A stretch of DNA of 64,000 nt from Candidatus Eiseniibacteriota bacterium (GCA_016930695.1 JAFGGD010000030.1:56321-120320); one strand, 5' to 3'. Shown: positions 1-63,922, numbered from the stretch's first letter. Translations and numbers: made by a program. The notes: generated by a model not told the origin, from the letters alone.

Positions 1-2229
1 ATCCGGGATCTGATCACCGGCCGCAGCTCGGCGGGGAGCATCAGCGCCCGGTCCGTGAAGAGCGTGGAGATCATCACCGGCGGTTTCGACGCCGAGTACG
101 GCCAGGCCCTCGCCGGCGTGATCGACATCGAGACCAAGGAGGGGAGCACGGAGCTGCACGGCTACGTGGAAGCGCAGAGCGATCACCTCCCCGGTTTCGG
201 AGACATCTACCGGAACACCGACTTCGACAAACTCGAGGTGCAGATCGAGGGGGAGGAACCGATCCAGCACTTCCTCCTGAAACCCCTCGGCGCCGCGATT
301 CCCGGCAAGCTCACCTTCTTCGTCGACCTTCAGGGAGATTTCGACAACACCTATCTCCCGGTCCAAGCCGCCGACGGAAGCGACAACACCCTCCGTTCCG
401 ATTACGTGGACCGCTTCCTGGGCATGGACATCCGGTACGACAACGACTTCTGGACCCCCCGCGCCGAGAACCGTTGGAGCGGCATGTACAAGGTCGCCTG
501 GCAACCGAACGGCCGGAACAAGGTCTTTCTCTCCTTCCAGAAAAAGCTGGAGATCGACCACGGGTTTTTCCGCAGCCCCCTGATCAGCGCCATCGATCCC
601 GGCGAGGCCACCTCGTCCTACAATTGGGAGTGGAGTCGCCGGAAAGACCACGATTACACGAACACCGACGACAACAACACGATCACCCTCGACTGGCGGC
701 GTATCTGGAACCGCCGGGTGCGGACCACATTCCGGTTCTCCCGCGCCTTCAACGCCTTCTTCCAGAACGTCCACGGGCGCCCGTGGTTCACCTACGAGGA
801 GTCGGACGACACGGACCTCCCGAACGACCAGGACACGGAGTTCTTCGTCGACACGGGCGACAACGACGTCTGGCACAGCCGCTACACCGAGTCCTACACG
901 GGCTATTTCGACATCAACTACTCGCCCGGGGATCATCACGATTTCAAGGGCGGGTTCGAAGCCAGCTACGAGAACCTGCAGTTCGTGACCATCAGCGAAC
1001 CCTGGGTGCAGGACCCGGACGGCCTCGGCCGGAACCACGACCTGTGGCACGTCTATCCGACCACGGGCGCGCTCTTCGTGCAGGACAAATTCCAGTTCGA
1101 GGGGTTCATCGGGAACGTGGGCCTCCGTTACGACTACTGGTTCCCGGGAAAAGCGGCGGAGGACGCCCTCCGGGACACCACCCGGGACGGCTTCAACCAG
1201 GCGCTTCTCGACAAGTACGAGGACGATTCCTTCTCCTTCCTCGGCGGCAACCGGGTGAAGGCGGTATTGGCGCCGCGGTTCCAGGTATCCCATCCGATCA
1301 CGGACCACTCCCACCTCTTCTTTAATTACGGACATTTCTCGCAGCGCCCGAACTACTACTACGTTTATTCCAAGATCAGCAGCGTCTCGAGCGAGGACTT
1401 TCCTCTCGTCGGCAACCTCACGCTAAACCCGAAAAAGACGGTCAAGTACGAGCTGGGGGCGCGGCACCAATTCACCGACGACCTGGCCGTGGATTTCTCG
1501 GTCTACTACAACGACATCTACGATTATCCGAAATCGCTTCGCTTCGAGCGGCCCGGTCTGCCGGACTACTTCGTCTATATCAACGAGGATTTCGCCCGCT
1601 CCCGGGGCTTTGAGGTGGAGCTGCGGAAGCGCCGCAGCCAGTACCTCTGGGGACGCCTTTCCTATTCGTACATGATCGCCACCGGAAAGGCCTCCGATCC
1701 GACGCAGACCAACCTGCTCCAGGAGGAGGTGGGCGCCTTCACACAGGTCGGCCGGGACGAGGAGTACCTCTACTGGAACCGGCCCCACAAGCTGACCCTG
1801 GACCTCACCTTCTCTGTCGGCGAGAGGCAGCAACCCCCGACGTTTTTCGGCTGGACCACGCCGCATGACTGGGATTTTCATCTCTATCTCTGGATGCAGT
1901 CCGGCCGGGCCTTCACGCCGCAAAACGCCAACGAAGAGGAGACGGGGGACCGCTACTCGGCAAACGCCCCCCTGAACAGCACCATCGACATTCGGTTCCG
2001 GAAGGGGTTCCGTCTCGCGGGGACCAAACTGAACTACGTCCTGGAAGTGCGCAACCTCTTCAATCATCGATACGCGAAGCGAATCGATCCGGTCACCGGC
2101 GAGGGATATGTGATCGGCGAGGGGATTCTCGACCACTCCCTGACGGAATGGGAATTGGCGAAATACTCCGATCCCTCTTTCCTCAGCTCGCCCCGCTCGG
2201 TGCGGGTGGGCGTGAGCGGAGAGTTCTAG
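1..2229 (+). CDS. TonB-dependent outer-membrane receptor (N-terminus cut by window edge)
   Basis: Frame-1 ORF is open from nt 1 (IRDLITGRS...). It has the plug-domain-like motif IITGGFDAEYGQALAGVIDIETKEG and a ~700-aa barrel-sized body rich in aromatic/Gly/Asp beta-strand signatures. It ends ...VRVGVSGEF; a terminal Phe is typical of OM beta-barrels. Confidence 0.75.
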   Translation: MRDLITGRSSAGSISARSVKSVEIITGGFDAEYGQALAGVIDIETKEGSTELHGYVEAQSDHLPGFGDIYRNTDFDKLEVQIEGEEPIQHFLLKPLGAAIPGKLTFFVDLQGDFDNTYLPVQAADGSDNTLRSDYVDRFLGMDIRYDNDFWTPRAENRWSGMYKVAWQPNGRNKVFLSFQKKLEIDHGFFRSPLISAIDPGEATSSYNWEWSRRKDHDYTNTDDNNTITLDWRRIWNRRVRTTFRFSRAFNAFFQNVHGRPWFTYEESDDTDLPNDQDTEFFVDTGDNDVWHSRYTESYTGYFDINYSPGDHHDFKGGFEASYENLQFVTISEPWVQDPDGLGRNHDLWHVYPTTGALFVQDKFQFEGFIGNVGLRYDYWFPGKAAEDALRDTTRDGFNQALLDKYEDDSFSFLGGNRVKAVLAPRFQVSHPITDHSHLFFNYGHFSQRPNYYYVYSKISSVSSEDFPLVGNLTLNPKKTVKYELGARHQFTDDLAVDFSVYYNDIYDYPKSLRFERPGLPDYFVYINEDFARSRGFEVELRKRRSQYLWGRLSYSYMIATGKASDPTQTNLLQEEVGAFTQVGRDEEYLYWNRPHKLTLDLTFSVGERQQPPTFFGWTTPHDWDFHLYLWMQSGRAFTPQNANEEETGDRYSANAPLNSTIDIRFRKGFRLAGTKLNYVLEVRNLFNHRYAKRIDPVTGEGYVIGEGILDHSLTEWELAKYSDPSFLSSPRSVRVGVSGEF

Positions 2230-2230
2230 A

Positions 2231-3241
2231 ATGAAACGCGCGGCGGTCATCGGCATCCTCCTCCCGGCCCTTCTCTTTTGGGCGGCCGGCGAGGCGCGCG
2301 CGGGATCGGGACTCGGCAGCGAGCGCGTGGGAACCGCCTCCGGGGCGTTCCTCAAGATCGGCGTGGGCGCAAAGGCCGTCGGCCTGGGCGAGGCCTTCAC
2401 CGCCGTCGCCGACGACGCGACGACGGTCTTCTGGAACCCCGCCGGCCTGACCAACCTGGAGGGACGCCACGCTCTTTTCTCCCATACCTCCTGGATCGCC
2501 GACATCGACTATGAGTATCTCGCCTACGCCCAGAGCCTCCCCTACCTGGGGGGGATGAGCGCCGGAATCCAGATCGGTTCCCTCCGAACCGACATGATGG
2601 AGACCACCGTCTACCAGCCCTACGGCACGGGACGGGAGTTCACCTACTCGGACCTCTTCATCGGCGTCGCCGCGGCGCGGCGTTTCACGGACAAGCTCTC
2701 CCTCGGCTTCGGCCTCAAGTACATCCGCGAGAATTACGGCGCCGCCATCGACGGGCCGGTGGTGAACACCTTCACCATCGATTTCGGCACCTATTATTTC
2801 CTCGGCGTCCGGGACGCGGTCTTCGCCGTCACGCTCCGCAACTTCGGGCCGGAGTGGCAACCGAACGGCACCTACATCGAGTACGGCGGCGACGACACGG
2901 GTCAGGAGATGGATTTCCAGAAGAACAGCTCGCCCACGAGCTTCCAGGCCGGTTTCCAGACCCGAGTCTGGGCGAACGAGACCTTCCGGCAGATCGGCGT
3001 GATCGAAATGTCCCGCCCGCCGGACAACTCGGAGTCGTTCCGGATCGCCACGGAGCTGACCTATCTGGACATGCTCGCCCTCCGCACCGGGTACAACCTG
3101 AACGCGGATGAGCTGAAATGGAGCGGCGGCCTCGGCGTCCGGTTGGAGACGTCGGGCGTGACCAACCGGGTCGACTACGCTTTCACCTATTCCGATTACC
3201 TGGAGCGGATCGACAGAATCTCCTGGGGGGTGGAGTTCTAA
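2231..3241 (+). CDS. FadL/TodX (Toluene_X)-family outer-membrane beta-barrel, possibly PorV-like
   Basis: Signal peptide MKRAAVIGILLPALLFWAAGEARA. N-terminal motif GAKAVGLGEAFTAVADDATTVFWNPAGL matches the FadL/TodX N-terminal signature (G-x-G-x-A...ADDA...NPA-L). C-terminal ...WGVEF. The start is 2 nt after the upstream stop, so the gene is operonic. Confidence 0.55.
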   Translation: MKRAAVIGILLPALLFWAAGEARAGSGLGSERVGTASGAFLKIGVGAKAVGLGEAFTAVADDATTVFWNPAGLTNLEGRHALFSHTSWIADIDYEYLAYAQSLPYLGGMSAGIQIGSLRTDMMETTVYQPYGTGREFTYSDLFIGVAAARRFTDKLSLGFGLKYIRENYGAAIDGPVVNTFTIDFGTYYFLGVRDAVFAVTLRNFGPEWQPNGTYIEYGGDDTGQEMDFQKNSSPTSFQAGFQTRVWANETFRQIGVIEMSRPPDNSESFRIATELTYLDMLALRTGYNLNADELKWSGGLGVRLETSGVTNRVDYAFTYSDYLERIDRISWGVEF

Positions 3242-4449
3242 TGCGCCGGATCACCCTCACCGCCCTCGGCCTTCTCCTTCTCGCGGCGGGCTGCGGAAAC
3301 AAGATGGACCTGCCCACCGAGACGCCGGGCGGACAGATCCCCTTCGACGGCTACTTCGTCTACGGAGTCTGGGAAAACGTGGGCAACGTGACCGACATCC
3401 TGGTCACCCAGAACCAGTGGATCTACGTCGCCGAGGACAGCGCAGTCGTCTCCCGCCTCAAACGGAAGGGGGGGAACGACAACGGCGTCGCCGTCGCCCG
3501 GGTGATCTCCACGTTGGAGGGCTTCCACGCGCCGGTGCGCCTGAGCGAAGGGGCGGAGGATCACATCTTCGTTCTCGACGTCGACACGGCCACCGCCGTC
3601 TTTTACAGCGACCGTTTCCCGAACACGCCCCCCAGCACGGTCCTGCCGATCCCGACGACGGTGGCGATCCCCCGTGTTCGGCTCTACGACCTCTACAGCC
3701 AGGCGATCACCGCCGACTGGATCGATCGGAAGTGGCTCCCGCAGGACAGCACGAACACCTTCACCGGGCGCGATTCCGCCCGGATCAATCACCATTTCGG
3801 AAACACCCTTCTCACCTGTCTCACCGCCGACGACGACGACAACATCTACGTGGGGGGGAGGAACTTCTCCTATCTCCTGAAGGTGAAGCGCGAGTTCGAC
3901 ACCACCTGGGTGGGGACCACGCCCGTTCTGACGCAGACGGGCGCCGAGTCCACCTACGTCGACTCCACCACCGAGTGGTTCGTGCGGAAGTACGACGCCG
4001 AGGGGAGTTTCCTCATCGAGGTCGTCTCCAACGGGAGCGGCCTCGGGTACGGCGAAGAGATCGAGGGGCTCGCCTGGACGCCGGAGGCGCTCTTCTTCGT
4101 CGACCGGGCGACGAACCGCCTGAAGGCGAACGATCCGAACCTCTCCGCGTCGGGGCTGGATTGGCTGACCGGCGACGAGATCAACGACCCCGGCGAGGCG
4201 ATCCCCTTCCTGCTGAATCCGTCGGGGGTCGCCGTGGATCCGCTCGGCCACATCTTCGTGAGCGACGGCGGGAACGGCCGGGTGCTCAAGTACACCGAGA
4301 GCTTCGCGTACAAGGAGCGCGTGGACCGGAACGCCGTCGGCCTCCTCGCCGCGCCGGGCGCGGTGGCGGCCACGGACTCGCTCGTGTACGTCTATGACGA
4401 GGCGGGGGGGAAGATGGTGCTCTTCGAACTCCCCAAACCGCCCGAATGA
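3241..4449 (+). CDS. NHL-repeat beta-propeller lipoprotein
   Basis: Lipobox LLLAAG-C (MRRITLTALGLLLLAAGCGNK). NHL-like blades include NIYVGGRNFSY and HIFVSDGGNGRVLKY. The start ATG abuts the upstream TAA (taATG); the longer ORF from 3118 was rejected as an upstream extension. Confidence 0.55.
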   Translation: MRRITLTALGLLLLAAGCGNKMDLPTETPGGQIPFDGYFVYGVWENVGNVTDILVTQNQWIYVAEDSAVVSRLKRKGGNDNGVAVARVISTLEGFHAPVRLSEGAEDHIFVLDVDTATAVFYSDRFPNTPPSTVLPIPTTVAIPRVRLYDLYSQAITADWIDRKWLPQDSTNTFTGRDSARINHHFGNTLLTCLTADDDDNIYVGGRNFSYLLKVKREFDTTWVGTTPVLTQTGAESTYVDSTTEWFVRKYDAEGSFLIEVVSNGSGLGYGEEIEGLAWTPEALFFVDRATNRLKANDPNLSASGLDWLTGDEINDPGEAIPFLLNPSGVAVDPLGHIFVSDGGNGRVLKYTESFAYKERVDRNAVGLLAAPGAVAATDSLVYVYDEAGGKMVLFELPKPPE

Positions 4450-6332
4450 AACGGATGACCGGAACGATGAAAACCATTTTCTTCCGCACGATCCTCGTGG
4501 CGGCGCTTCTCGCCGCGGCGCCCCTCTCCGCCCAGGATGAATACCGGTCGATCCCGGATCAGAAGTTCACCTCCGTGAACCAGATCGGGCTCATGATCAA
4601 CAACAACGGTTTCCTCGGCACCAACCTGCCGAGCGAACTCTCGCCCCCCTCTTTCGAGTATCCCCTCGGAACCGACCTGGAACGGATGATCCGCGGCGGG
4701 ATCTGGATCGGCGCGATCAACGTGGACAACGACACGCTCGTGAGCCACGCCGCCATCGACGCCTACTACACCGACCCGATCGAATCGGAGTTCCGCGCGG
4801 GACCGCTCATGGATGTCCGCAGCTCTTTGAAAAACGACCCCAACTACGATCCCGACGCGGTGTCGGAACAGGACTACGACTGTTTCTTCGTCGATACCGA
4901 CGCCACCCTGATGAACAACCACGTCCCATTGAACTTGAAGGTGCGGCTCAAGACATACGCATGGAGCTTCCAGCCGGTGGACCAGTTCGTCATTCTGAGC
5001 TACACCATCGAGAACATCGGCCAGAACCGCCTGCAGGACCTTTATGTCGGAATGTACGGCGAGCTGATCAGCTGCTCCAAGTCGTCGGGAGGCTCCTTCC
5101 CGGGCCAGTGCTTCGACACCAAGGCGGTCTTCTACGACGCCGAGCGGCGCGCCGTCGGGAACCGGCACTTCACCTTCGACTATCCCGGTTACGCGGGCTA
5201 CGCGCTCCTCGGATCGCTCCCCGACACGCTCGGGAACAAGACCGTCACCTATGAGTGGATGCGCTGGGATCCGGGCGCCGCCAGCTCCGCCACGGACCCG
5301 GATCGCTACCGGCTCATGTCGAGCGGAGTCATCGATGTCGACTTCGACCCCGTGGCCGATCCGGGGGACACGCTCGTTCCGGTCGACGACCCGACGGAGC
5401 TTCTCTCCGCCGGTCCCTATCGCTTCCTCGATCCGGGGGACACGCTGAACGTGGTCTTCGCTTTCGCCGGCGGGACGGGCTGGGACGATTATCTCTTCCG
5501 CGTCGACTGGGCGCAGAAGACCTTCGAGTCGAACTATCAGATCCCGGAGCCGCCCCCCTCGCCGGCGCTCCACGTCGACCCGGGCCCGAACCGCGTCCGT
5601 CTCTTCTGGGACGCCGCGCCCGAGACGATTCCCGATCCGGTGCTCCCCGATTCGATGGACTTCCAGGGCTACCGAATCTACCTCTCCCGGGACAACCTGG
5701 ATTGGACTCTGGTGGGAGAGTACGACATCGTCGACACCATCGGATTCAACACCGGTTTCGCGTCGATTCTCTCGGACACGACGATCGACGAGTGGGATTA
5801 CAACTACGCCTACGAGATTCCCAATCTGAAGGACGGCTTCGAATACTGGGTGAGCGTGACCAGCTACGATCGGGGCGACCGCGCCCAGGGCGTTCCCCCG
5901 CTCGAGAGCGGTTACAGCCAGAACAGAAACATCATCATCCCCGGCCCGGACGCCAAGGGACCCGGCGATGCACGCCCCGACGTGCTCGTCTTCCCGAATC
6001 CCTATCGAGGGGAGGCGCTCTGGGACGGCCAGTATCCCCGGGAGCGGCTGATCTATTTCGGCAACCTGCCGCGTCTCTGCACGATCCGGATCTACACCAT
6101 CGCCGGCGACCTGGTGGACACCATCGTCTTCGACGCCGAGTCCTACCACGCCCTGGAATCGGCGGCGGTGTACGACCCCGATTTCGATCCCCCCGTGTTG
6201 TCCGGCGGCCTCGCCGCGTGGGACCTGCTGACCAGTCAGGACCAGTCCATCGCCTCCGGCCTCTACGTCTTCTCCGTGGAGGACCGGGAAACGGGCGACG
6301 TGGAGGTCGGAAAGTTCTTGGTGATCCGATGA
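4446..6332 (+). CDS. Secreted protein with fibronectin-III-like domain and T9SS C-terminal sorting domain
   Basis: ATGA overlap with the upstream stop. Signal peptide ...ILVAALLAAAPLSAQ. FnIII-like segment PPPSPALHVDPGPNRVRLFWDA...QGYRIYLSRDNLDW. C-terminus ...ASGLYVFSVEDRETGDVEVGKFLVIR fits the Por_Secre_tail/T9SS CTD pattern. Confidence 0.6.
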   Translation: MKRMTGTMKTIFFRTILVAALLAAAPLSAQDEYRSIPDQKFTSVNQIGLMINNNGFLGTNLPSELSPPSFEYPLGTDLERMIRGGIWIGAINVDNDTLVSHAAIDAYYTDPIESEFRAGPLMDVRSSLKNDPNYDPDAVSEQDYDCFFVDTDATLMNNHVPLNLKVRLKTYAWSFQPVDQFVILSYTIENIGQNRLQDLYVGMYGELISCSKSSGGSFPGQCFDTKAVFYDAERRAVGNRHFTFDYPGYAGYALLGSLPDTLGNKTVTYEWMRWDPGAASSATDPDRYRLMSSGVIDVDFDPVADPGDTLVPVDDPTELLSAGPYRFLDPGDTLNVVFAFAGGTGWDDYLFRVDWAQKTFESNYQIPEPPPSPALHVDPGPNRVRLFWDAAPETIPDPVLPDSMDFQGYRIYLSRDNLDWTLVGEYDIVDTIGFNTGFASILSDTTIDEWDYNYAYEIPNLKDGFEYWVSVTSYDRGDRAQGVPPLESGYSQNRNIIIPGPDAKGPGDARPDVLVFPNPYRGEALWDGQYPRERLIYFGNLPRLCTIRIYTIAGDLVDTIVFDAESYHALESAAVYDPDFDPPVLSGGLAAWDLLTSQDQSIASGLYVFSVEDRETGDVEVGKFLVIR

Positions 6333-7807
6333 GGACGGTGAACGCTCTCCTCTTTCTCTCGGCGCTCCTGGCCGCCGCTCTCGTCTCTTTCGGCGGCTGC
6401 GGCGACAACGCCTTCGATCCGAAGGAGAACCGCGCCCCCGAAACGGGACTCGCCCTGACCGGCGACTCCCTCTCCACCACCATCTATCGCGTGAATCTGA
6501 AGTGGTGGGGGAGCGATCTGGACGGCGAGGTGCACGGCTACGAATACCGTTGGATTCCTCTGCAGGGTCTCACCGAAACCTACGAACTGGACACCGCCTG
6601 GACCTATACCGCCTTCGTGAAAAAGAATTTCGTCCTTCCCGTGCCGGACGCGAACGCGCGCTTCCGCTTCGAGGTCCGCGCCATGGACGACGAGGGGAAG
6701 AGGGATCCGACGCCGGCGACGCAGGAGTATCCTTTCTATAACAATCGTCCTTCGGTGTCGATCCGGTACAAGTCGCTCCTCCCCGATTCCGCCTGGCCGG
6801 TGCTCACCTTCGGCTGGGACTCCGCGGACCCGGACGGCGACTCCACCATCGCCAAACATCTGATCTGGGTGGGGGGACGCGAGGAATCGCCGATGGAGGT
6901 GGACGCCGAGCTGGACACGATTCTCCTTCTGCCGGCGCAATTGGACACTTCCGGCTGGGTGACCGTGTTCCTGCAGACCGTAGACGAGGCCCACTCCGCC
7001 AGCGATCCGGACAGTTTTGACGTGAAACTCTATCCGATTCATGGGGAGATCCTCCTGGTCGACGACTACTCGCTCAACTCGGCGGGATTCGTGGACGCCG
7101 ACTCTTGGTACAAGGACTTCCTGATCGGCCGCGTACAGGAAGACGGCTTCACCCGGATCGACCTCGCCAAAACGCCTTTCAACACGGACGTTCGTTTCGG
7201 CGGCTTCCTGACCGCCTTCAACCACGTGATCTGGTACAGCGGCCACCGCGCGCGATCGGTCTTCAGCGACGAGCAGCGTTTCACCCAGATGGGACGCGCC
7301 GAGAAGGGACTGGGCACATTCCTCGAGCGGGGGGGAGGCCTCTTCCTCTCCTCGCTGAACGCGATCGGCACCTACAGCGGGTTCACGCCCAATTTCTATA
7401 AGACCTACGCCGGTTTCGACACCGTCTTCATCGACACCACGCCGCGCACCCAGACCTTCTCCAACTTCGCGTTCCGCGAGGGGATCTACGCCTACCAGGT
7501 CCCCCTGGAGCCTTTCGAGGGGACCGGTCTTCCCCAGCTGCGCGCCTTCACCGGGCTTCGCTATCACGGGCTCGACTCTCCGGTCGATACCACTGCAACC
7601 TTTGCCGCGGAAAGGCTTTACAAGATTCCGAACGGCAATCTGCAGGGGCAGGCCGCCGACTTCACCGTCGTACTCCGCCGGGATTTACCCGCTCCGGGGG
7701 GACGCCTGGTGCTCTCCACCATTCCCTTCGCCTTCTATTATGGGGAAGGGAACAACGACGAGGTGTTCGGGGCTTTCCTCGACTGGCTGGGAGCGCCGGC
7801 CCGCTAA
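6329..7807 (+). CDS. Lipoprotein of unknown function (last gene of operon)
   Basis: ATGA overlap with the upstream stop. Lipobox LVSFGG-C (MRTVNALLFLSALLAAALVSFGGCGDN). The six-frame ORF extends upstream to 5255, but there is no signal peptide there and that extension lies inside the preceding gene. Confidence 0.5.
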   Translation: MRTVNALLFLSALLAAALVSFGGCGDNAFDPKENRAPETGLALTGDSLSTTIYRVNLKWWGSDLDGEVHGYEYRWIPLQGLTETYELDTAWTYTAFVKKNFVLPVPDANARFRFEVRAMDDEGKRDPTPATQEYPFYNNRPSVSIRYKSLLPDSAWPVLTFGWDSADPDGDSTIAKHLIWVGGREESPMEVDAELDTILLLPAQLDTSGWVTVFLQTVDEAHSASDPDSFDVKLYPIHGEILLVDDYSLNSAGFVDADSWYKDFLIGRVQEDGFTRIDLAKTPFNTDVRFGGFLTAFNHVIWYSGHRARSVFSDEQRFTQMGRAEKGLGTFLERGGGLFLSSLNAIGTYSGFTPNFYKTYAGFDTVFIDTTPRTQTFSNFAFREGIYAYQVPLEPFEGTGLPQLRAFTGLRYHGLDSPVDTTATFAAERLYKIPNGNLQGQAADFTVVLRRDLPAPGGRLVLSTIPFAFYYGEGNNDEVFGAFLDWLGAPAR

Positions 7808-7842
7808 GTCCCGGCTGTGCCTCGACATCCTTAACCTTCATC

Positions 7843-7871
7843 TTGACTTGACGTTGCGTTTCTGGTAACAT
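7843..7871 (+). promoter_or_regulatory. Sigma-70-like promoter candidate (TTGACT-N17-TAACAT) upstream of 8014 gene
   Basis: Hexamers read directly, with 17-nt spacer; about 140 nt upstream of the start codon, followed by a weak hairpin plus T6 at 7892-7910. Confidence 0.3.
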
Positions 7872-8013
7872 TGTTTCGCCGTCTATATACAGCGGCGATG
7901 CGCTTTTTTCCCCCGGCGGCGCCGGCGGGAAGGGCGGCCGAAAAAACGTTCCTGATGCCGAATTTCGGAAACCGAATCCGCGAGTCCCACCGGGCCGCAA
8001 GGAGGAATGTCCC

Positions 8014-9927
8014 ATGAAGCGATCGATCCTGTTTCTCGCCCTGGCCGCGCTGGCGACGGCGACTTTCGCGTACGCCGAATGTCCCGAACCGGTCGATACG
8101 GTCACGGTCCAGCAGATCCAGCTGGGTATGGGCGTGATCGTAAACGAGATTTATTACGTGGACAGCATCGTCGTCACCGGTCTCGGCGAGGCCGGCTTCT
8201 ACGCCCAGGAGCTGGAAGACACGGGAAGCGCTTTCTCCGGCATCTACGTGTATACCGGCGCCGAGCCGACCGACTACAGCCGCGGCGATCTGGTGAACGT
8301 GATCGGCACACTGCAGGAGTACTTCGAATGGACCGAACTCCGGGTCACGAGCGATTACTACGGGTGCGTTTTCATCATCGGCACCGCCGATGTGCCCGTG
8401 CCGGCGATGGTCACCTGCTGCGACATCAACGACTCGGTGAACGTGGAGGCGGAGAAGTGGGAGAGCGTTCTCGTGCAGGTCGATTCGGTCCGCGTGACGA
8501 ATGATAATTACTCCCAATACGGAGAGTGGACGGTCGTGGAGTTCGACGGCGACGCCGGTTGCGCCGCCCAGGAAACGCTCATTTGCGACGACGAGATGCT
8601 TCAGCCGGTCGCCGTGCCGGACAGCGGCACGCATCTCCAAGGCATCATCGGCTGCATCTCCTACAACTTCGACTTCTTCAAGCTGAACCCGCGGAACAAC
8701 GCCGACCTCCTTTACATCGGCCTGCCGCCGGCGCCGAACACCCGCTTCTGCTATCCCATCGACAACAGCCATCTCGGCGTCGCCTTCGACAAGCAGTTGG
8801 ACGAGGTTTCCGCGGAGAACGCCAGCAACTACTACATCGCGGAGTTCGACATCACCATCTCCTCCGCGCAGATGCAGGACGACTCCCTCACGGTGATCCT
8901 CACCACGAGCGACATGTCCGGCTTCACCGGGAGCGCCTTCCGCAGCCTGGTGGTGGAGAACGTGAAGAACGCCCAGGGCGTGCCGATGGCGGCCAACATC
9001 GAAGAGTTCATCCCCGGTGTGAAGAACTGCGAGTTCGCGCATCTCACCGACAGCGCCACCGTGGCCGGGCGTCCCTTCGCCATCGGCGCCGTGGTCACCG
9101 CTACGCCGACCGAGGCCTACGCGGATCGTTACATGTTCATCCAGGACCGGAACACCGCCTTCGGCTACGGCTTGATCCTTTACACCGGAAGCTACATCGA
9201 CGTGGACGAGGTCGGCATCGAGAGGGGCGACTCGGTCCTCGTCTCCGGCCTGGTTTCGCCCTACTTCGGCCTGATCGAGATGGGCGTGGTGGATTACATC
9301 GGCATCGTCACCCCGGGCCTCGCCGTTCCGGCGCCGGTCGTGGTTTCCGTCGCCACCGCCCGCACCGATCCTTACGAGGGGAAGCTGGTGCGCGTCGAGA
9401 ACGTGCGCGTGCGCACCGACTCGATCGGCTGGGGCGAGTGGTCCGTCGACAACGTGCTGGGCGACACTCTCTGCATCGACAACATCTTCAGCCCGGGCAT
9501 CGACAACTACGAGCCCGCGCCCGGCGACTCCTTCACCTTCATCGCCGGCCCGATGTGGTATGAGTACAGCCACCGGAAGATCAACCCACGCGACTACGAC
9601 GACATCTACATCGTCGGCGTCACCGACGTGGACGACGGCGCGCCGAAGTTCATGAACGCCCTGGATCAGAACCGGCCGAACCCGTTCAACCCGGTCACCA
9701 CGATCCAGTTCTCGCTCCAGAGGCCGACGGACGTGGCTCTCCGGATCTACGACGTTTCCGGCCGCGAGGTGCGGACGCTGACCAAGTCGAACCTCCAGGC
9801 GGGCCGGTACGAAGCGGTTTGGCACGGACAGAACAACGCCGGCCAGAACGTCTCCTCCGGCGTCTACTTCTACCGTCTCGAGGCGGGCGAATACACCGCC
9901 ACGCGCAAGATGGTGCTGATCCGCTAA
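8014..9927 (+). CDS. Secreted protein with two OB-fold-like modules, Ig-like domain and T9SS C-terminal sorting domain
   Basis: RBS-like GGAGGA ahead of the ATG. Signal peptide MKRSILFLALAALATATFAYA. The module (V/I)QQIQ...G..V.V.G(V/I)VT......GF..Q.....S.GI.VYTG.......RGD.V.V.G.L.E recurs at residues ~30-110 and ~360-440. It resembles the N-terminal OB-fold of ExeM/NucH-type extracellular nuclease precursors, but no catalytic domain was recognised. C-terminus ...GVYFYRLEAGEYTATRKMVLIR is a T9SS CTD. Confidence 0.6.
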   Translation: MKRSILFLALAALATATFAYAECPEPVDTVTVQQIQLGMGVIVNEIYYVDSIVVTGLGEAGFYAQELEDTGSAFSGIYVYTGAEPTDYSRGDLVNVIGTLQEYFEWTELRVTSDYYGCVFIIGTADVPVPAMVTCCDINDSVNVEAEKWESVLVQVDSVRVTNDNYSQYGEWTVVEFDGDAGCAAQETLICDDEMLQPVAVPDSGTHLQGIIGCISYNFDFFKLNPRNNADLLYIGLPPAPNTRFCYPIDNSHLGVAFDKQLDEVSAENASNYYIAEFDITISSAQMQDDSLTVILTTSDMSGFTGSAFRSLVVENVKNAQGVPMAANIEEFIPGVKNCEFAHLTDSATVAGRPFAIGAVVTATPTEAYADRYMFIQDRNTAFGYGLILYTGSYIDVDEVGIERGDSVLVSGLVSPYFGLIEMGVVDYIGIVTPGLAVPAPVVVSVATARTDPYEGKLVRVENVRVRTDSIGWGEWSVDNVLGDTLCIDNIFSPGIDNYEPAPGDSFTFIAGPMWYEYSHRKINPRDYDDIYIVGVTDVDDGAPKFMNALDQNRPNPFNPVTTIQFSLQRPTDVALRIYDVSGREVRTLTKSNLQAGRYEAVWHGQNNAGQNVSSGVYFYRLEAGEYTATRKMVLIR

Positions 9928-9953
9928 GCGCCTTCCCAAAACGCAACGCGGAA

Positions 9954-9980
9954 GGGGGGACCGTCGGGTCCCCCCTTTTT
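9954..9980 (+). terminator. Intrinsic terminator after 8014-9927 gene
   Basis: GGGGGGACC-gtcg-GGTCCCCCC perfect 9-bp stem followed by TTTTT, 27 nt after the stop codon. Confidence 0.6.
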
Positions 9981-10118
9981 CTGTGCGGTTTTTGCACACG
10001 CCTCCACGCCGCTCCTCTTCGCCCGGACCTTCGGATTCCGCTTCTTTCCCTCTCCGCGTAACGCGCGCGGCGCGCTTCTGCGCGATTTTTGCGCGTTTCA
10101 GCCCGCCTGTGCCGTTTC

Positions 10119-10134
10119 GGCCGGCTTTTTGCAA
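10119..10134 (+). promoter_or_regulatory. Weak sigma-54-like -24/-12 element (CGGCCG-N5-TTGCA)
   Basis: GG and GC dinucleotides at correct spacing, about 90 nt upstream of the 10224 start. The -24 box deviates from TGGCAC at two positions. Confidence 0.2.
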
Positions 10135-10223
10135 TTTCATTGCGCGGGCGGTTCCCCGACCGTCCGGCCCACACGGGCCGATCCCCGGTCCGCCGAAAGA
10201 GTGAACGCAGAAGGGATGGAACC

Positions 10224-11180
10224 ATGATTAGAAAATGCGCCGCCGCGATCGCCACTCTTCTCATCGTCTCCGGCGCCTCCCGCGCCGCGGGGGAAGAGCG
10301 CGCCGGGATTCGCGACATACAGCAGGGAGCCTATCCCCCATACTCGTGGGTTCTCGTGGAGAGCGTCACCGTTACCGCGGTCGCGCCGGACGGTTTCTTC
10401 GCGGAGGAGGAGGGGGGAGGCCCGTGGAGCGGGATCTGGATCAACCGGCAGAAGACCCCCGCGGTTTCCGTCGGCGACCGGGTGCGCGTCCGGGGCTACT
10501 ACGCGGAGATCCGCGGTCTCTCCCTGGTCAGCGCGACCGATGCGCTGTGGGGCTCTGTGGAATGGATCGACCGCGCGCGATCCGCCCCGGCCGCGGAGAA
10601 AATCGCCGCGGGCGATGTGGGGGAACCCTACGAGGGGGTGCTCGTCTCCATCGGCGAGTTGATCGTCCTCGGCCCTGTCGGCGGCGGGGAGTGGCTCGCG
10701 CTCTCCTTCGGCGAAGGCGAGGCGGGAGACACGATCCGCGCGGGGGGGACGATGGCCTACACCATCCCCGAAACGGGGGACACCCTCGCCCTCCTCACGG
10801 GCCCGGTTCACACCGTCGACGGCGCCTATCGGATCGAGCCGCGCAATGACGACGATATCGTGTTGATGGAGGAAGCGACCGGCGCCGCCGGCGGCGCGCC
10901 CGCCCGCTTCCGTTTGTACGGCAACCAACCGAATCCGTTCAATCCATCCACCCACATCGCCTTCGATCTCCCCGCGGAAGGGAGGACGAGGGCGGACGTT
11001 TACGATCTATCCGGCCGCCTGGTCCGCGTCCTGTCGGACCGCACCCTTTCCGCCGGATCGCACACGATCCGGTGGGACGGCACGGACGACCGGGGGAACG
11101 AAGTCTCTTCGGCTGTTTACTTCTGCCGCGTCACTCACGGGGGGAACACCGAGGTGATCAAGATGTCGCTCGTCCGCTGA
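10224..11180 (+). CDS. Secreted single-module OB-fold-like protein with T9SS C-terminal sorting domain (paralog of 8014 gene)
   Basis: RBS-like GAAGGGA ahead of the ATG. Signal peptide MIRKCAAAIATLLIVSGASRAAG. GIRDIQQGAYPPYSWVLVESVTVTAV...GFFAEEE...SGIWINRQ...VGDRVRVRGYYAEIRG matches the module of the 8014 protein. C-terminus ...SAVYFCRVTHGGNTEVIKMSLVR is a T9SS CTD. The upstream extension to 10089 was rejected. Confidence 0.55.
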   Translation: MIRKCAAAIATLLIVSGASRAAGEERAGIRDIQQGAYPPYSWVLVESVTVTAVAPDGFFAEEEGGGPWSGIWINRQKTPAVSVGDRVRVRGYYAEIRGLSLVSATDALWGSVEWIDRARSAPAAEKIAAGDVGEPYEGVLVSIGELIVLGPVGGGEWLALSFGEGEAGDTIRAGGTMAYTIPETGDTLALLTGPVHTVDGAYRIEPRNDDDIVLMEEATGAAGGAPARFRLYGNQPNPFNPSTHIAFDLPAEGRTRADVYDLSGRLVRVLSDRTLSAGSHTIRWDGTDDRGNEVSSAVYFCRVTHGGNTEVIKMSLVR

Positions 11181-11704
11181 GCGGCGCGCCGCCGAACGTG
11201 AAATACAAACGTCCGGCCGGGGGTTTCCCGGATGCCCGTTCGTAAGGACCGGGCATCTTAGAGGAGGGTCCGGCATGTCGCGCATCGATCCTTCCCACGC
11301 GCTACCGGCCGTCCACGGAAAGGGTCCGGAAGAGGACCTTTCCCGCGGTGCCGTGGGAAGAAGCGGCGGGGACTCGCATGGCGCGAAGCGTCCCGTCGCA
11401 CGGCACAATCATCCGCTCCCCTTCGCCCCGTCCGCCGGCGCTTCCGCCGCCCCGGCTCCGCGCAAAGGGGGATCTCCCCCTCTCCCGCTCCACGGCTCCG
11501 GCGCCATCCCCTCCTGTTCGGAAATTTTACGGATGCTTTTGGAGATGAAGATGTCCGCGGCGATGCGCGCCCTTCTCTTTCCGGAACCGCGCCGGGAGAA
11601 CGAGGAATGATCCGGAGAGGGAGGGGGTGACGAAACGATGCGCCCGTCGGTCCCGGATTCTCCCTTCACGATCTCGGGAAGCGAAAAGGGATGCGGCACC
11701 GAAA

Positions 11705-12109
11705 TCAGCGCAGGTGCTTTTCCAGGTCGGAGAGATCCATCGGTAGGAACTCGCGGAAGGGAACCGAGCGGATCGAACCTTCCCCGCCGGCGAGGATCAC
11801 TTCGCCGGTACTCTTATCCACCCACTCGGCGAGAACGCCGAGGCACGCCCCGCAGGGGACCAGGTGGAAGCCGGTATCGCTCCAGATGGCGACGCGCCGG
11901 AAACCGGTCGCGCCCTCGCTGATCGCTTTGAAGAGCGCCACCCTCTCGGCGCAGAGCGTGAGGCTGAACGAGGCGTTTTCGATGTTACAGCCGGTGAATA
12001 CCCGCCCGTCCGTCGTTTCCAAAGCGCAGCCGACGCGCACCTTGGAATAAGGGGAATAGGAACGCTCCGCCGCTTCCTTCGCCCGCCCCGCGAGTTCCTC
12101 CGCTTTCAT
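11705..12109 (-). CDS. cdd: Cytidine deaminase
   Basis: 134 aa with the zinc-binding motifs CAERVAL...PCGACLGVL in the spacing typical of homotetrameric cytidine deaminases. Confidence 0.85.
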   Translation of the reverse strand: MKAEELAGRAKEAAERSYSPYSKVRVGCALETTDGRVFTGCNIENASFSLTLCAERVALFKAISEGATGFRRVAIWSDTGFHLVPCGACLGVLAEWVDKSTGEVILAGGEGSIRSVPFREFLPMDLSDLEKHLR

Positions 12110-62017: not shown

Positions 62018-62851
62018 ATGGGCACCGAAGCGAATCGAGGGGCGAACCGCTGGAACCTGAAAAGGGCCCTGCTGGTTTCGCTTGTCCTTCATTTGCTTGC
62101 GCCGATTTTGGTCTCCCATCTCGGCAAAGCGACGGGTTGGTTGAAGGCGGAGGAACTCCCGGCGCCCGAGCGGCGGGAGCCGATCGTCTTCGAGTTCGTC
62201 GAGCCCTCGCCCGGCCCGGAGGCGGAGGTGGCGCCGGAGTCCGATCTGGTCTCGACCAAAAGTACCGAGGCCCGGTCGCCGGACGCGCCGGGATCGGAAC
62301 GGAACGACCTTCCCGTTTCGCGCGGCGAATCCCCCATAAAGGAGAGCCGTCCCGCCGCGTCGGCGGAGGAGCCCCAAGAGGCGGCGCCCGCGCCGGAGAA
62401 GCCGCAGGAGGAGGGGGAGTCCCCGGCCGCCGCCGCGCGCCCCTCCATACGCTCTCCCTCGACGATCCGCAGCAACGTCAGCCGCTCCATCGAGGAGAGC
62501 CGCTCGGACAATCGGGAGGGACGCCGTGCCATCCCCGGCGATCTTTCGTTCAACACGATCGATTTCGAGTTCGCGCCCTACCTGCTCGAGTTGAAGCGCC
62601 GGATCGAGGCGCACTGGTTTCCGCCCGTCGCCTTCCGCGGCGGCCTTCCCTACCGAGGCGACACGGTGGTCCGGTTCGCCGTGGACCGGGAAGGGAACCT
62701 GACTCTCCTGGAGCGGGTGTCCGGAGCGGATCACGAATCACTGGACACGGCGGCGCTCAGCGCGGTCCGCTTCGGCGCCCCCTTCCCGCCGCTCCCGGAG
62801 AATTTCCCGGAGGAACGGTGGGTGATCACCTGCACCTTCTACTACCGATGA
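62018..62851 (+). CDS. tonB: TonB-family energy transducer
   Basis: N-terminal TM anchor LLVSLVLHLLAPILVSHL, Pro/Glu-rich periplasmic spacer, and C-terminal TonB domain ...YLLELKRRIEAHWFPP...GDTVVRFAVDREGNL...VSGADHESLDTAALSAV. Confidence 0.7.
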   Translation: MGTEANRGANRWNLKRALLVSLVLHLLAPILVSHLGKATGWLKAEELPAPERREPIVFEFVEPSPGPEAEVAPESDLVSTKSTEARSPDAPGSERNDLPVSRGESPIKESRPAASAEEPQEAAPAPEKPQEEGESPAAAARPSIRSPSTIRSNVSRSIEESRSDNREGRRAIPGDLSFNTIDFEFAPYLLELKRRIEAHWFPPVAFRGGLPYRGDTVVRFAVDREGNLTLLERVSGADHESLDTAALSAVRFGAPFPPLPENFPEERWVITCTFYYR

Positions 62852-62858
62852 GGCGCCC

Positions 62859-63506
62859 ATGAAATCGTTGATCGCTTTCCTCGTCGCCGGCGGCCCTCTC
62901 ATGATCCCGCTCGGCCTCTGCTCGGTGATCGCCCTCGCCGTTATTCTGGAGCGGGCGATCAACCTGCGCCGCCGCCGCATCCTCGTTCCGGAGATCGTGC
63001 GGCTCATCGAAACGATCCGAGGTCCCGGCGATCTCTCCCTCTCCCTCGCCATCCTGGAAAAGAATCCGGGGAGTTTCGCCAACGTGGTGCGCGCCGCGCT
63101 GGAGAACCGGAACCTTCCGGCGGAGGAGATCCGGGAAATGGTCGGCGACGCGGGGCGGCGCGAGGCGAAACGCGTCCGCAAGGGGCTGATCGCCCTCGAA
63201 GCGATCGCCGGCGTGGCGCCGTTGCTCGGGCTTCTCGGCACGGTGATCGGCATGATCCGCGTCTTCCGCGTGATCGCCCTGGTCGGCGTGGGAAACGCGA
63301 ACGCCCTCAGCGGCGGCATCTCTCAGGCGCTGATCACCACCGCCGTCGGTCTCTCGGTCGCGATCCCGGCGCTTGCCGCCTATCACCTTTTCGCGAGCCG
63401 GGCCGGAGAAATCGTTTCGGACATGGAGCATCACGCGGGCGTGCTCCTCGCCAAGCTGCGGGGGATGCGCATCGCCGGGACTCCGGCGGGGGAGGAGGCG
63501 CGATGA
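62859..63506 (+). CDS. exbB: MotA/TolQ/ExbB-family proton channel
   Basis: Three TM helices. LGLLGTVIGMIRVF and TTAVGLSVAIPALAAYHLF are ExbB/TolQ signature segments. Follows tonB. Confidence 0.85.
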   Translation: MKSLIAFLVAGGPLMIPLGLCSVIALAVILERAINLRRRRILVPEIVRLIETIRGPGDLSLSLAILEKNPGSFANVVRAALENRNLPAEEIREMVGDAGRREAKRVRKGLIALEAIAGVAPLLGLLGTVIGMIRVFRVIALVGVGNANALSGGISQALITTAVGLSVAIPALAAYHLFASRAGEIVSDMEHHAGVLLAKLRGMRIAGTPAGEEAR

Positions 63507-63922
63507 AGTTCGACGGGGAAGAGGGACGCTCGCCGATGGTGAACGTGACGCCCCTGATCGACGCGCTCTTCCTGCTCCTCATCTTTTTCATGGTCAGCTC
63601 CACGTTCCGGGACCTCCCCGGGATCCCTCTCGACCTGCCGGAGGCGAAGTCGGGCGAAGCGACCCGTTCCTCGGGAGTGGAGATCCAGATCGACCGTGAA
63701 GGGGTGGTCCGCCTGGAGGGGCGGATCGTCGGCGACAGGGACCTTACCGAGCGTCTCGCGGAAGCGCTGGACGCGGCCGATTCGCGGGACCTGGTTCTCC
63801 GAGCGGACCGGGACGTTCCCTACGGCGAAGTGGTGCGGGTGATGGACGCGGCACGGCAATCGCGGGTGGGGAAGCTGGTGGTGGCGACGGAAAATCTACC
63901 GCCGGCCGGGGAAAACCGTTAG
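63503..63922 (+). CDS. exbD: ExbD/TolR-family biopolymer transport protein
   Basis: ATGA overlap with exbB. VNVTPLIDALFLLLIFFMVS single TM with the conserved Asp, and a periplasmic domain. Confidence 0.8.
   Translation: MKFDGEEGRSPMVNVTPLIDALFLLLIFFMVSSTFRDLPGIPLDLPEAKSGEATRSSGVEIQIDREGVVRLEGRIVGDRDLTERLAEALDAADSRDLVLRADRDVPYGEVVRVMDAARQSRVGKLVVATENLPPAGENR

Follow-up and report, generated by a model that had tools for sequence, protein, structure and literature searches.

An operon that joins a TonB-dependent transporter to a PorV/PorQ-family barrel and type IX-tailed proteins, with a possible role in nucleic acid capture at the cell surface

The beta-propeller lipoprotein BtuG is known as the lid of a TonB-dependent transporter. 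In an experimentally tested DNA-utilisation locus of Bacteroides, the DUF5689 protein DdbD is predicted to bind DNA as a partner of the transporter DdbC (PMC12478041). Carriage of DNA across the outer membrane has also been proposed for transformation genes of Riemerella (PMC12478041; PMC8459023 cited therein). [quoted passage not shown] The nuclease SpnA requires OB2 and OB3 for DNA binding (PMC13601614). A window of 64,000 nucleotides from a Candidatus Eiseniibacteriota bacterium was analysed here, following up an earlier note that knew of no described module wiring a FadL-like barrel and a TonB-dependent transporter to a type-A-like T9SS cargo. The literature searched likewise described no module of a TonB-dependent transporter with a PorV-like barrel, but a cognate barrel for a type-A tail is known, and the novelty is limited to the wiring of such a barrel and tail pair to a TonB-dependent transporter.

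Positions 1-7807 hold five + strand genes joined by 1-4-nt junctions; all five open reading frames and the junctions can be read directly from the sequence, as the earlier note had described. Genes 1 and 2 meet at a TAG (2227-2229) that is followed by one base and the ATG at 2231, genes 2 and 3 at TAATG (3239-3243), genes 3 and 4 at ATGA (4446-4449) and genes 4 and 5 at ATGA (6329-6332). The positions given before were correct for 2227-2233, 4446-4449 and 6329-6332 and one base off for 3238-3243. In the public annotation of an identical protein (JW958_05765, 621 aa) gene 4 starts at ATG 4467, which would make the protein 621 instead of 628 aa long, and the junction of genes 3 and 4 may then be a 17-nt spacer instead of a 4-nt overlap; the orthologous genes overlap by 4 nt in L003 and L004 and are 10 nt apart in L001. 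Upstream starts of longer open reading frames exist for genes 3 and 5 (3118 and 5255), and 3241 and 6329 are taken as the true starts because lipoprotein signal peptides and alignments fit there. GC3 was 0.86-0.87 for those of the five reading frames that were scored, and no terminator-like site was found on the + strand within 1-7807. Tight junctions and a spacing above 200 nt upstream of gene 6 recur in orthologous loci whose PorV/PorQ-family proteins are 48-71% identical to the copy in the window, the spacing in L001, L003 and L004, and the packing is therefore conserved and no accident. The 206-nt gap in the window has no Rfam match and folds no better than shuffled sequences; it contains a weakly promoter-like site (7843-7871, + strand) composed of TTGACT, 17 nt and TAACAT, with TG ahead of the second hexamer. 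An end of the module at 7807, as assumed before, does not hold: gene 6 (8014-9927, + strand) is in the conserved set and gene 7 (10224-11180, + strand) encodes a shortened paralogue of its product.

The first gene (1-2229, + strand) encodes the TonB-dependent transporter. The gene starts outside the window, leaving 742 of about 950 residues, with about 210 residues missing at the N-terminus as gauged against the 952-aa orthologue in L001. The 22-strand barrel domain is above threshold (PF00593, 56.3 bits versus a cut-off of 27), and of the plug only about the last 50 residues are present, with weak matches to the plug regions of PqqU and FepA. The full-length orthologue (L001:6522-9377) consists of CarboxypepD_reg, Plug (36.9 bits versus 23.9) and barrel. 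Assignment to SusC/RagA was rejected, as TIGR04056 reached 19.2 bits (L001) and 85.9 bits (L081) versus 368, in the N-terminal 200 residues only, and no module protein matched the SusD family in Pfam and NCBIfam profile searches; the earlier description as 'Sus-like logic, different parts' fits this picture. At the other end of the window (62018-63922), 54 kb away, a protein with a TonB C-terminal domain is encoded together with ExbB/TolQ-like and ExbD/TolR-like genes. These had been called tonB-exbB-exbD; such genes do exist, but TolQ/TolR models score slightly better, and they are uninformative on the operon.

The second gene (2231-3241, + strand) encodes a FadL-like outer-membrane barrel of 336 aa with a type I signal peptide. 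Its proposed place in the FadL/PorV superfamily was confirmed by a full-length match to NF033709 (146 bits versus 90; residues 38-336, profile positions 4-326 of 326), which makes it a true member of the PorV/PorQ family. An Ignavibacteria orthologue scores 235.5 bits with this model, and named homologues in Candidatus Eisenbacteria MAGs carry the annotation 'PorV/PorQ family protein'. Identity with PorV, PorQ or PorV2 proper was rejected on the equivalog cut-offs (NF033710, NF033711 and NF052325), the scores being 61.7 versus 220 for PorQ, the closest of the three, 58.2 versus 325 for PorV2 and 52.3 versus 250 for PorV. The Pfam signals are of superfamily level only: UPF0164 is passed (31.9 versus 21.4), and Toluene_X (24.4 versus 29.7) and PF19572 PorV (25.5 versus 27) stay below the gathering score. 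The protein is best read as a putative dock for a surface machine, with binding of a cargo tail as a prediction.

Two of the remaining products are lipoproteins that presumably reside at the surface. The first, encoded by gene 3 (3241-4449, + strand; lipobox LAAGC), is a six-bladed NHL beta-propeller (PF01436 repeat, 33.2 bits versus 20) that matches PknD-sensor-derived 'Pizza' propellers in six to seven stretches (E 1e-27), including six- and seven-bladed designs and PknD itself. In both gene orders its gene always lies 3' of the barrel gene. The second, protein 5 (6329-7807, + strand), has an invariant Cys24, two Ig/FnIII-like domains and an inactive-looking C-terminal GATase1/ThuA/IFT52-N-like domain, which matches ThuA-like proteins and GH42 middle domains. 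Neither protein 5 nor protein 4 gave a Pfam match in profile searches. Protein 4 (4446-6332, or from 4467; + strand) is composed of a signal peptide, a galactose-mutarotase-like beta-supersandwich of sugar-enzyme type, an FnIII-like domain and a divergent type-A tail, and belongs to a family of about 1000 clusters at 50% identity. The earlier note took it for a type-A-like T9SS cargo. This view is backed by profile-profile homology to canonical tails (96.7%, E 3.6e-10, over the whole tail length and with two insertions) but fails on Por_Secre_tail (PF18962) and TIGR04183, neither of which is matched; the L081 orthologue scores 20.7 versus 23 with TIGR04183. The tail keeps the PNP motif, the SGLY motif and the near-invariant penultimate Lys, and its sole NCBIfam match is the PorZ tail model. 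By profile-profile homology only, it is a putative T9SS tail of atypical form. All five family guesses of the earlier note hold, some of them only at superfamily level.

Protein 6 contains a signal peptide, two tandem nuclease-type OB modules and a canonical type-A tail, which passes the curated models at the extreme C-terminus (Por_Secre_tail, 30.9 bits versus 27; TIGR04183, 37.8 versus 23, residues 555-634 of 637) and scores 43.7 with FlgD_ig. It matches the ExeM/NucH N-terminal region with 55 bits, and the profile of its family matches the OB3-OB4 region of the S. pyogenes nuclease SpnA (9sf8, E 2.5e-12; PMC13601614), a stretch that precedes the SpnA nuclease domain. The OB fold PF01336 was matched by 10 of the 21 family members, and protein 6 is internally duplicated (29% identity, E 2e-12). 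Weak CBM_56 matches were obtained for three of the 21 homologues and a DUF5689 match for one (E 2.6e-4); window proteins 6 and 7 have no DUF5689 match. No nuclease domain was found in protein 6, and nuclease families gave no match within positions 1-12109. Protein 7 has a signal peptide, one OB module and a T9SS-type tail. By tblastn, positions 10227-10871 are 35% identical to the N-terminal module of a 783-aa L003 protein, and positions 10905-11174 match the tail; the tail of protein 7 passes FlgD_ig only (32.5 versus 27), with Por_Secre_tail below threshold. At least five other proteins of the window also carry such tails, and the organism therefore uses the T9SS sorting signal widely. T9SS core genes (SprA/Sov, PorK/L/M/N) were not seen within the 64 kb.

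Synteny, which the earlier note had named as a test that could refute the module, turned out to be strongly conserved across phyla: of 44 related loci that span 15 kb or more, 36 have all six families on the same strand. Two gene orders were observed, one in Eisenbacteria, WOR-3 and Stahlbacteria and one in Ignavibacteria and Kryptoniota, and the succession of transporter, barrel and NHL genes is kept in essentially all loci of both orders. Genes for RpiB and adenosine deaminase are co-directional with the module and abut it in six loci (L018, L020, L026, L027, L031 and L033), the adenosine deaminase gene overlapping the next gene by 4 nt in L033 and lying 18 nt from it in L026. Six further loci have these genes within about 4 kb, which brings the total to 12 of the 26 Eisenbacteria-order loci having an upstream flank; the link is confined to this part of that order and is found in none of 26 Ignavibacteria-order loci. 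The closest relatives are flanked by genes for PNP, thymidine kinase, uridine kinase, 5'-nucleotidase, cytidine deaminase and dNK. The window has a cytidine deaminase gene in its flank, outside the operon (11705-12109, - strand; dCMP_cyt_deam_1, 61.6 bits versus 25), and orthologues are found at the corresponding place in L003, L006 and L007. A gene combining DUF5689 with a PLD-like domain (45-55 bits versus 28.6) adjoins the module on its 3' side in six loci (L062, L064, L075, L081, L083 and L032). None was found beside the module of the window, and the PLD-like domains are restricted to relatives.

The analysis establishes how the genes are packed, which families and predicted folds they encode, and how synteny and neighbourhood are kept. 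There is about an even chance that the module encodes one surface complex of the outer membrane that captures extracellular nucleic acid and imports it, or its breakdown products, in a TonB-dependent manner; each physical interaction, the surface location of the lipoproteins, the substrate and the direction of transport are predictions from sequence only. Proteins 4, 6 and 7 would cross the inner membrane via Sec and the outer membrane via the type IX system using their C-terminal domains, and the dedicated PorQ-like barrel would retain protein 4, at the least, at the surface by gripping its uncleaved, insertion-bearing tail, comparable to PorQ and PorZ. DNA or RNA would be bound by the OB modules of proteins 6 and 7 and cut by a nuclease, which may be the adjacent DUF5689-PLD protein in some relatives and an enzyme encoded elsewhere in the genome of the window. 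The NHL propeller and protein 5 could act as lid or accessory binders on the transporter, and imported oligonucleotides, nucleotides or nucleosides could be consumed by the neighbouring adenosine deaminase, RpiB, nucleoside phosphorylase, cytidine deaminase and kinases. The evidence points to nucleic acids as the substrate, where the earlier note had named none. Against this stand the missing nuclease in the module, the folds of proteins 4 and 5 that are typical of carbohydrate-active proteins, the CBM_56 matches, the patchy nucleoside-gene link, the missing DUF5689 match of protein 6 and the T9SS core genes not seen in the window. More tentatively, and with doubt prevailing, the module could represent a machine of the FCB superphylum that is ancient and so far undescribed, in which a PorQ-like barrel docks DNA-binding and accessory proteins, delivered by the T9SS, onto a TonB-dependent channel. 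Its carriers would be Eisenbacteria, Ignavibacteria, Kryptoniota, WOR-3, Stahlbacteria and others, and its ancestry may be common with TonB-dependent transporter-based DNA uptake for transformation in Bacteroidota.

The same architecture could serve a glycan or other non-nucleic polymer as a polysaccharide utilisation system without SusD, with the supersandwich of protein 4 and the GIFT/ThuA-like domain of protein 5 binding sugar chains and the OB modules acting as carbohydrate-binding modules. The ThuA-like and GH42 matches of protein 5, the CBM_56 signals and RpiB as a sugar-phosphate isomerase fit such a system. It is nevertheless unlikely, since neither the module nor the flanks scanned showed a glycoside hydrolase, SusD or a sugar kinase, the neighbourhood is enriched in nucleoside enzymes, the OB modules score far better on nuclease N-termini than on carbohydrate-binding modules, and the enzyme adjoining the module in relatives is a DUF5689 and PLD-like protein instead of a CAZyme. 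The near-universal module with its order kept across phyla would suit housekeeping machinery more than a nutrient locus, and together with the PorQ-like and PorZ-tail-like signals this could speak for a PorQ/PorZ-like surface sorting or attachment unit of non-Bacteroidia FCB bacteria, or an adhesion layer at the surface. In that case the TonB-dependent-type barrel would be a platform or exporter, like Oar for PopC in Myxococcus, and there is a precedent for such a transporter being needed for protein secretion (PMC6434023). But protein 4 has only the tail in common with PorZ and lacks propellers, and it has no conserved Cys/His dyad and therefore is no PorU-like sortase. The window transporter does not match the Oar-like model PF25183, for which a faint precomputed match exists in the L004 orthologue only, and a sorting role is hard to reconcile with the operonic adenosine deaminase and RpiB genes, which leaves this explanation quite improbable.

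Uptake of DNA for natural transformation instead of food, comparable to the pair of a TonB-dependent transporter and a DUF5689 protein in Riemerella anatipestifer, is very unlikely. The Bacteroides Ddb locus is reportedly related to the Riemerella transformation genes (PMC12478041; PMC8459023 cited therein), and proteins 6 and 7 are DNA-binding-type modules whose domains predict no nuclease activity. The operonic neighbours, however, are catabolic (deaminases, phosphorylase and RpiB), and ComEC, DprA and pilus genes were not seen among the 25 commonest families listed for the flanks scanned. If import of nucleic acids is correct, several large 'hypothetical' families, such as that of protein 4, gain a role, and type IX secretion with cognate PorV-like barrels would assemble import machines beyond releasing enzymes or adhesins. 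FCB lineages that are abundant but uncultured would be recognised as feeding on extracellular nucleic acids, which make up a major pool of organic phosphorus and nitrogen in soils and sediments. Should the ancient FCB machine exist, a nutrient importer would be assembled by way of the T9SS, and these uncultured lineages of sediment and soil would have a dedicated means of using extracellular DNA or RNA as food. The barrel and the insertion-bearing tail are also a testable pair for how some type-A tails escape cleavage.

Among known systems, the Ddb loci of gut Bacteroidales (ddbABCDEF; Sharan et al. 2025, PMC12478041) are likewise multi-gene and combine a TonB-dependent transporter with surface OB-fold DNA-binding protein(s). 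They have a PUL-like logic in common with the present module, the downstream chemistry is nucleoside and base deamination, and in six related loci the gene next to the module encodes the DdbD family DUF5689. Ddb loci have secreted nucleases, whereas the module of the window has none, and a DUF5689 lipoprotein binder takes the place of the T9SS-tailed ExeM/NucH-type OB proteins. The present module adds the PorV/PorQ-family barrel, the NHL lipoprotein and proteins 4 and 5, and it occurs in Eisenbacteria, Ignavibacteria, Kryptoniota, WOR-3 and Stahlbacteria instead of Bacteroidales. SusCD PULs and BtuB-BtuG likewise have a TonB-dependent transporter with an N-terminal CarboxypepD_reg domain, co-encoded lipoproteins (presumably at the surface here) and extra binding proteins. 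In contrast to SusCD PULs, the present module has neither SusD nor glycoside hydrolases, its transporter fails the SusC/RagA model, and its binders would be delivered by the T9SS instead of being surface lipoproteins. [quoted passage not shown] As in PorQ-PorZ, the tail of protein 4 may be retained and not cleaved, and the barrel is nearest to PorQ by score; yet barrel and tail are below every equivalog cut-off, PorZ has propellers where protein 4 has a supersandwich and FnIII domain, no A-LPS or sortase role is implied, and barrel and cargo genes share one operon with a TonB-dependent transporter. The extracellular nucleases ExeM/NucH and SpnA, finally, have a non-catalytic DNA-binding N-terminal region that matches the OB modules of proteins 6 and 7; their endonuclease/exonuclease/phosphatase domain is absent here, where the module is instead duplicated and fused to a T9SS tail.

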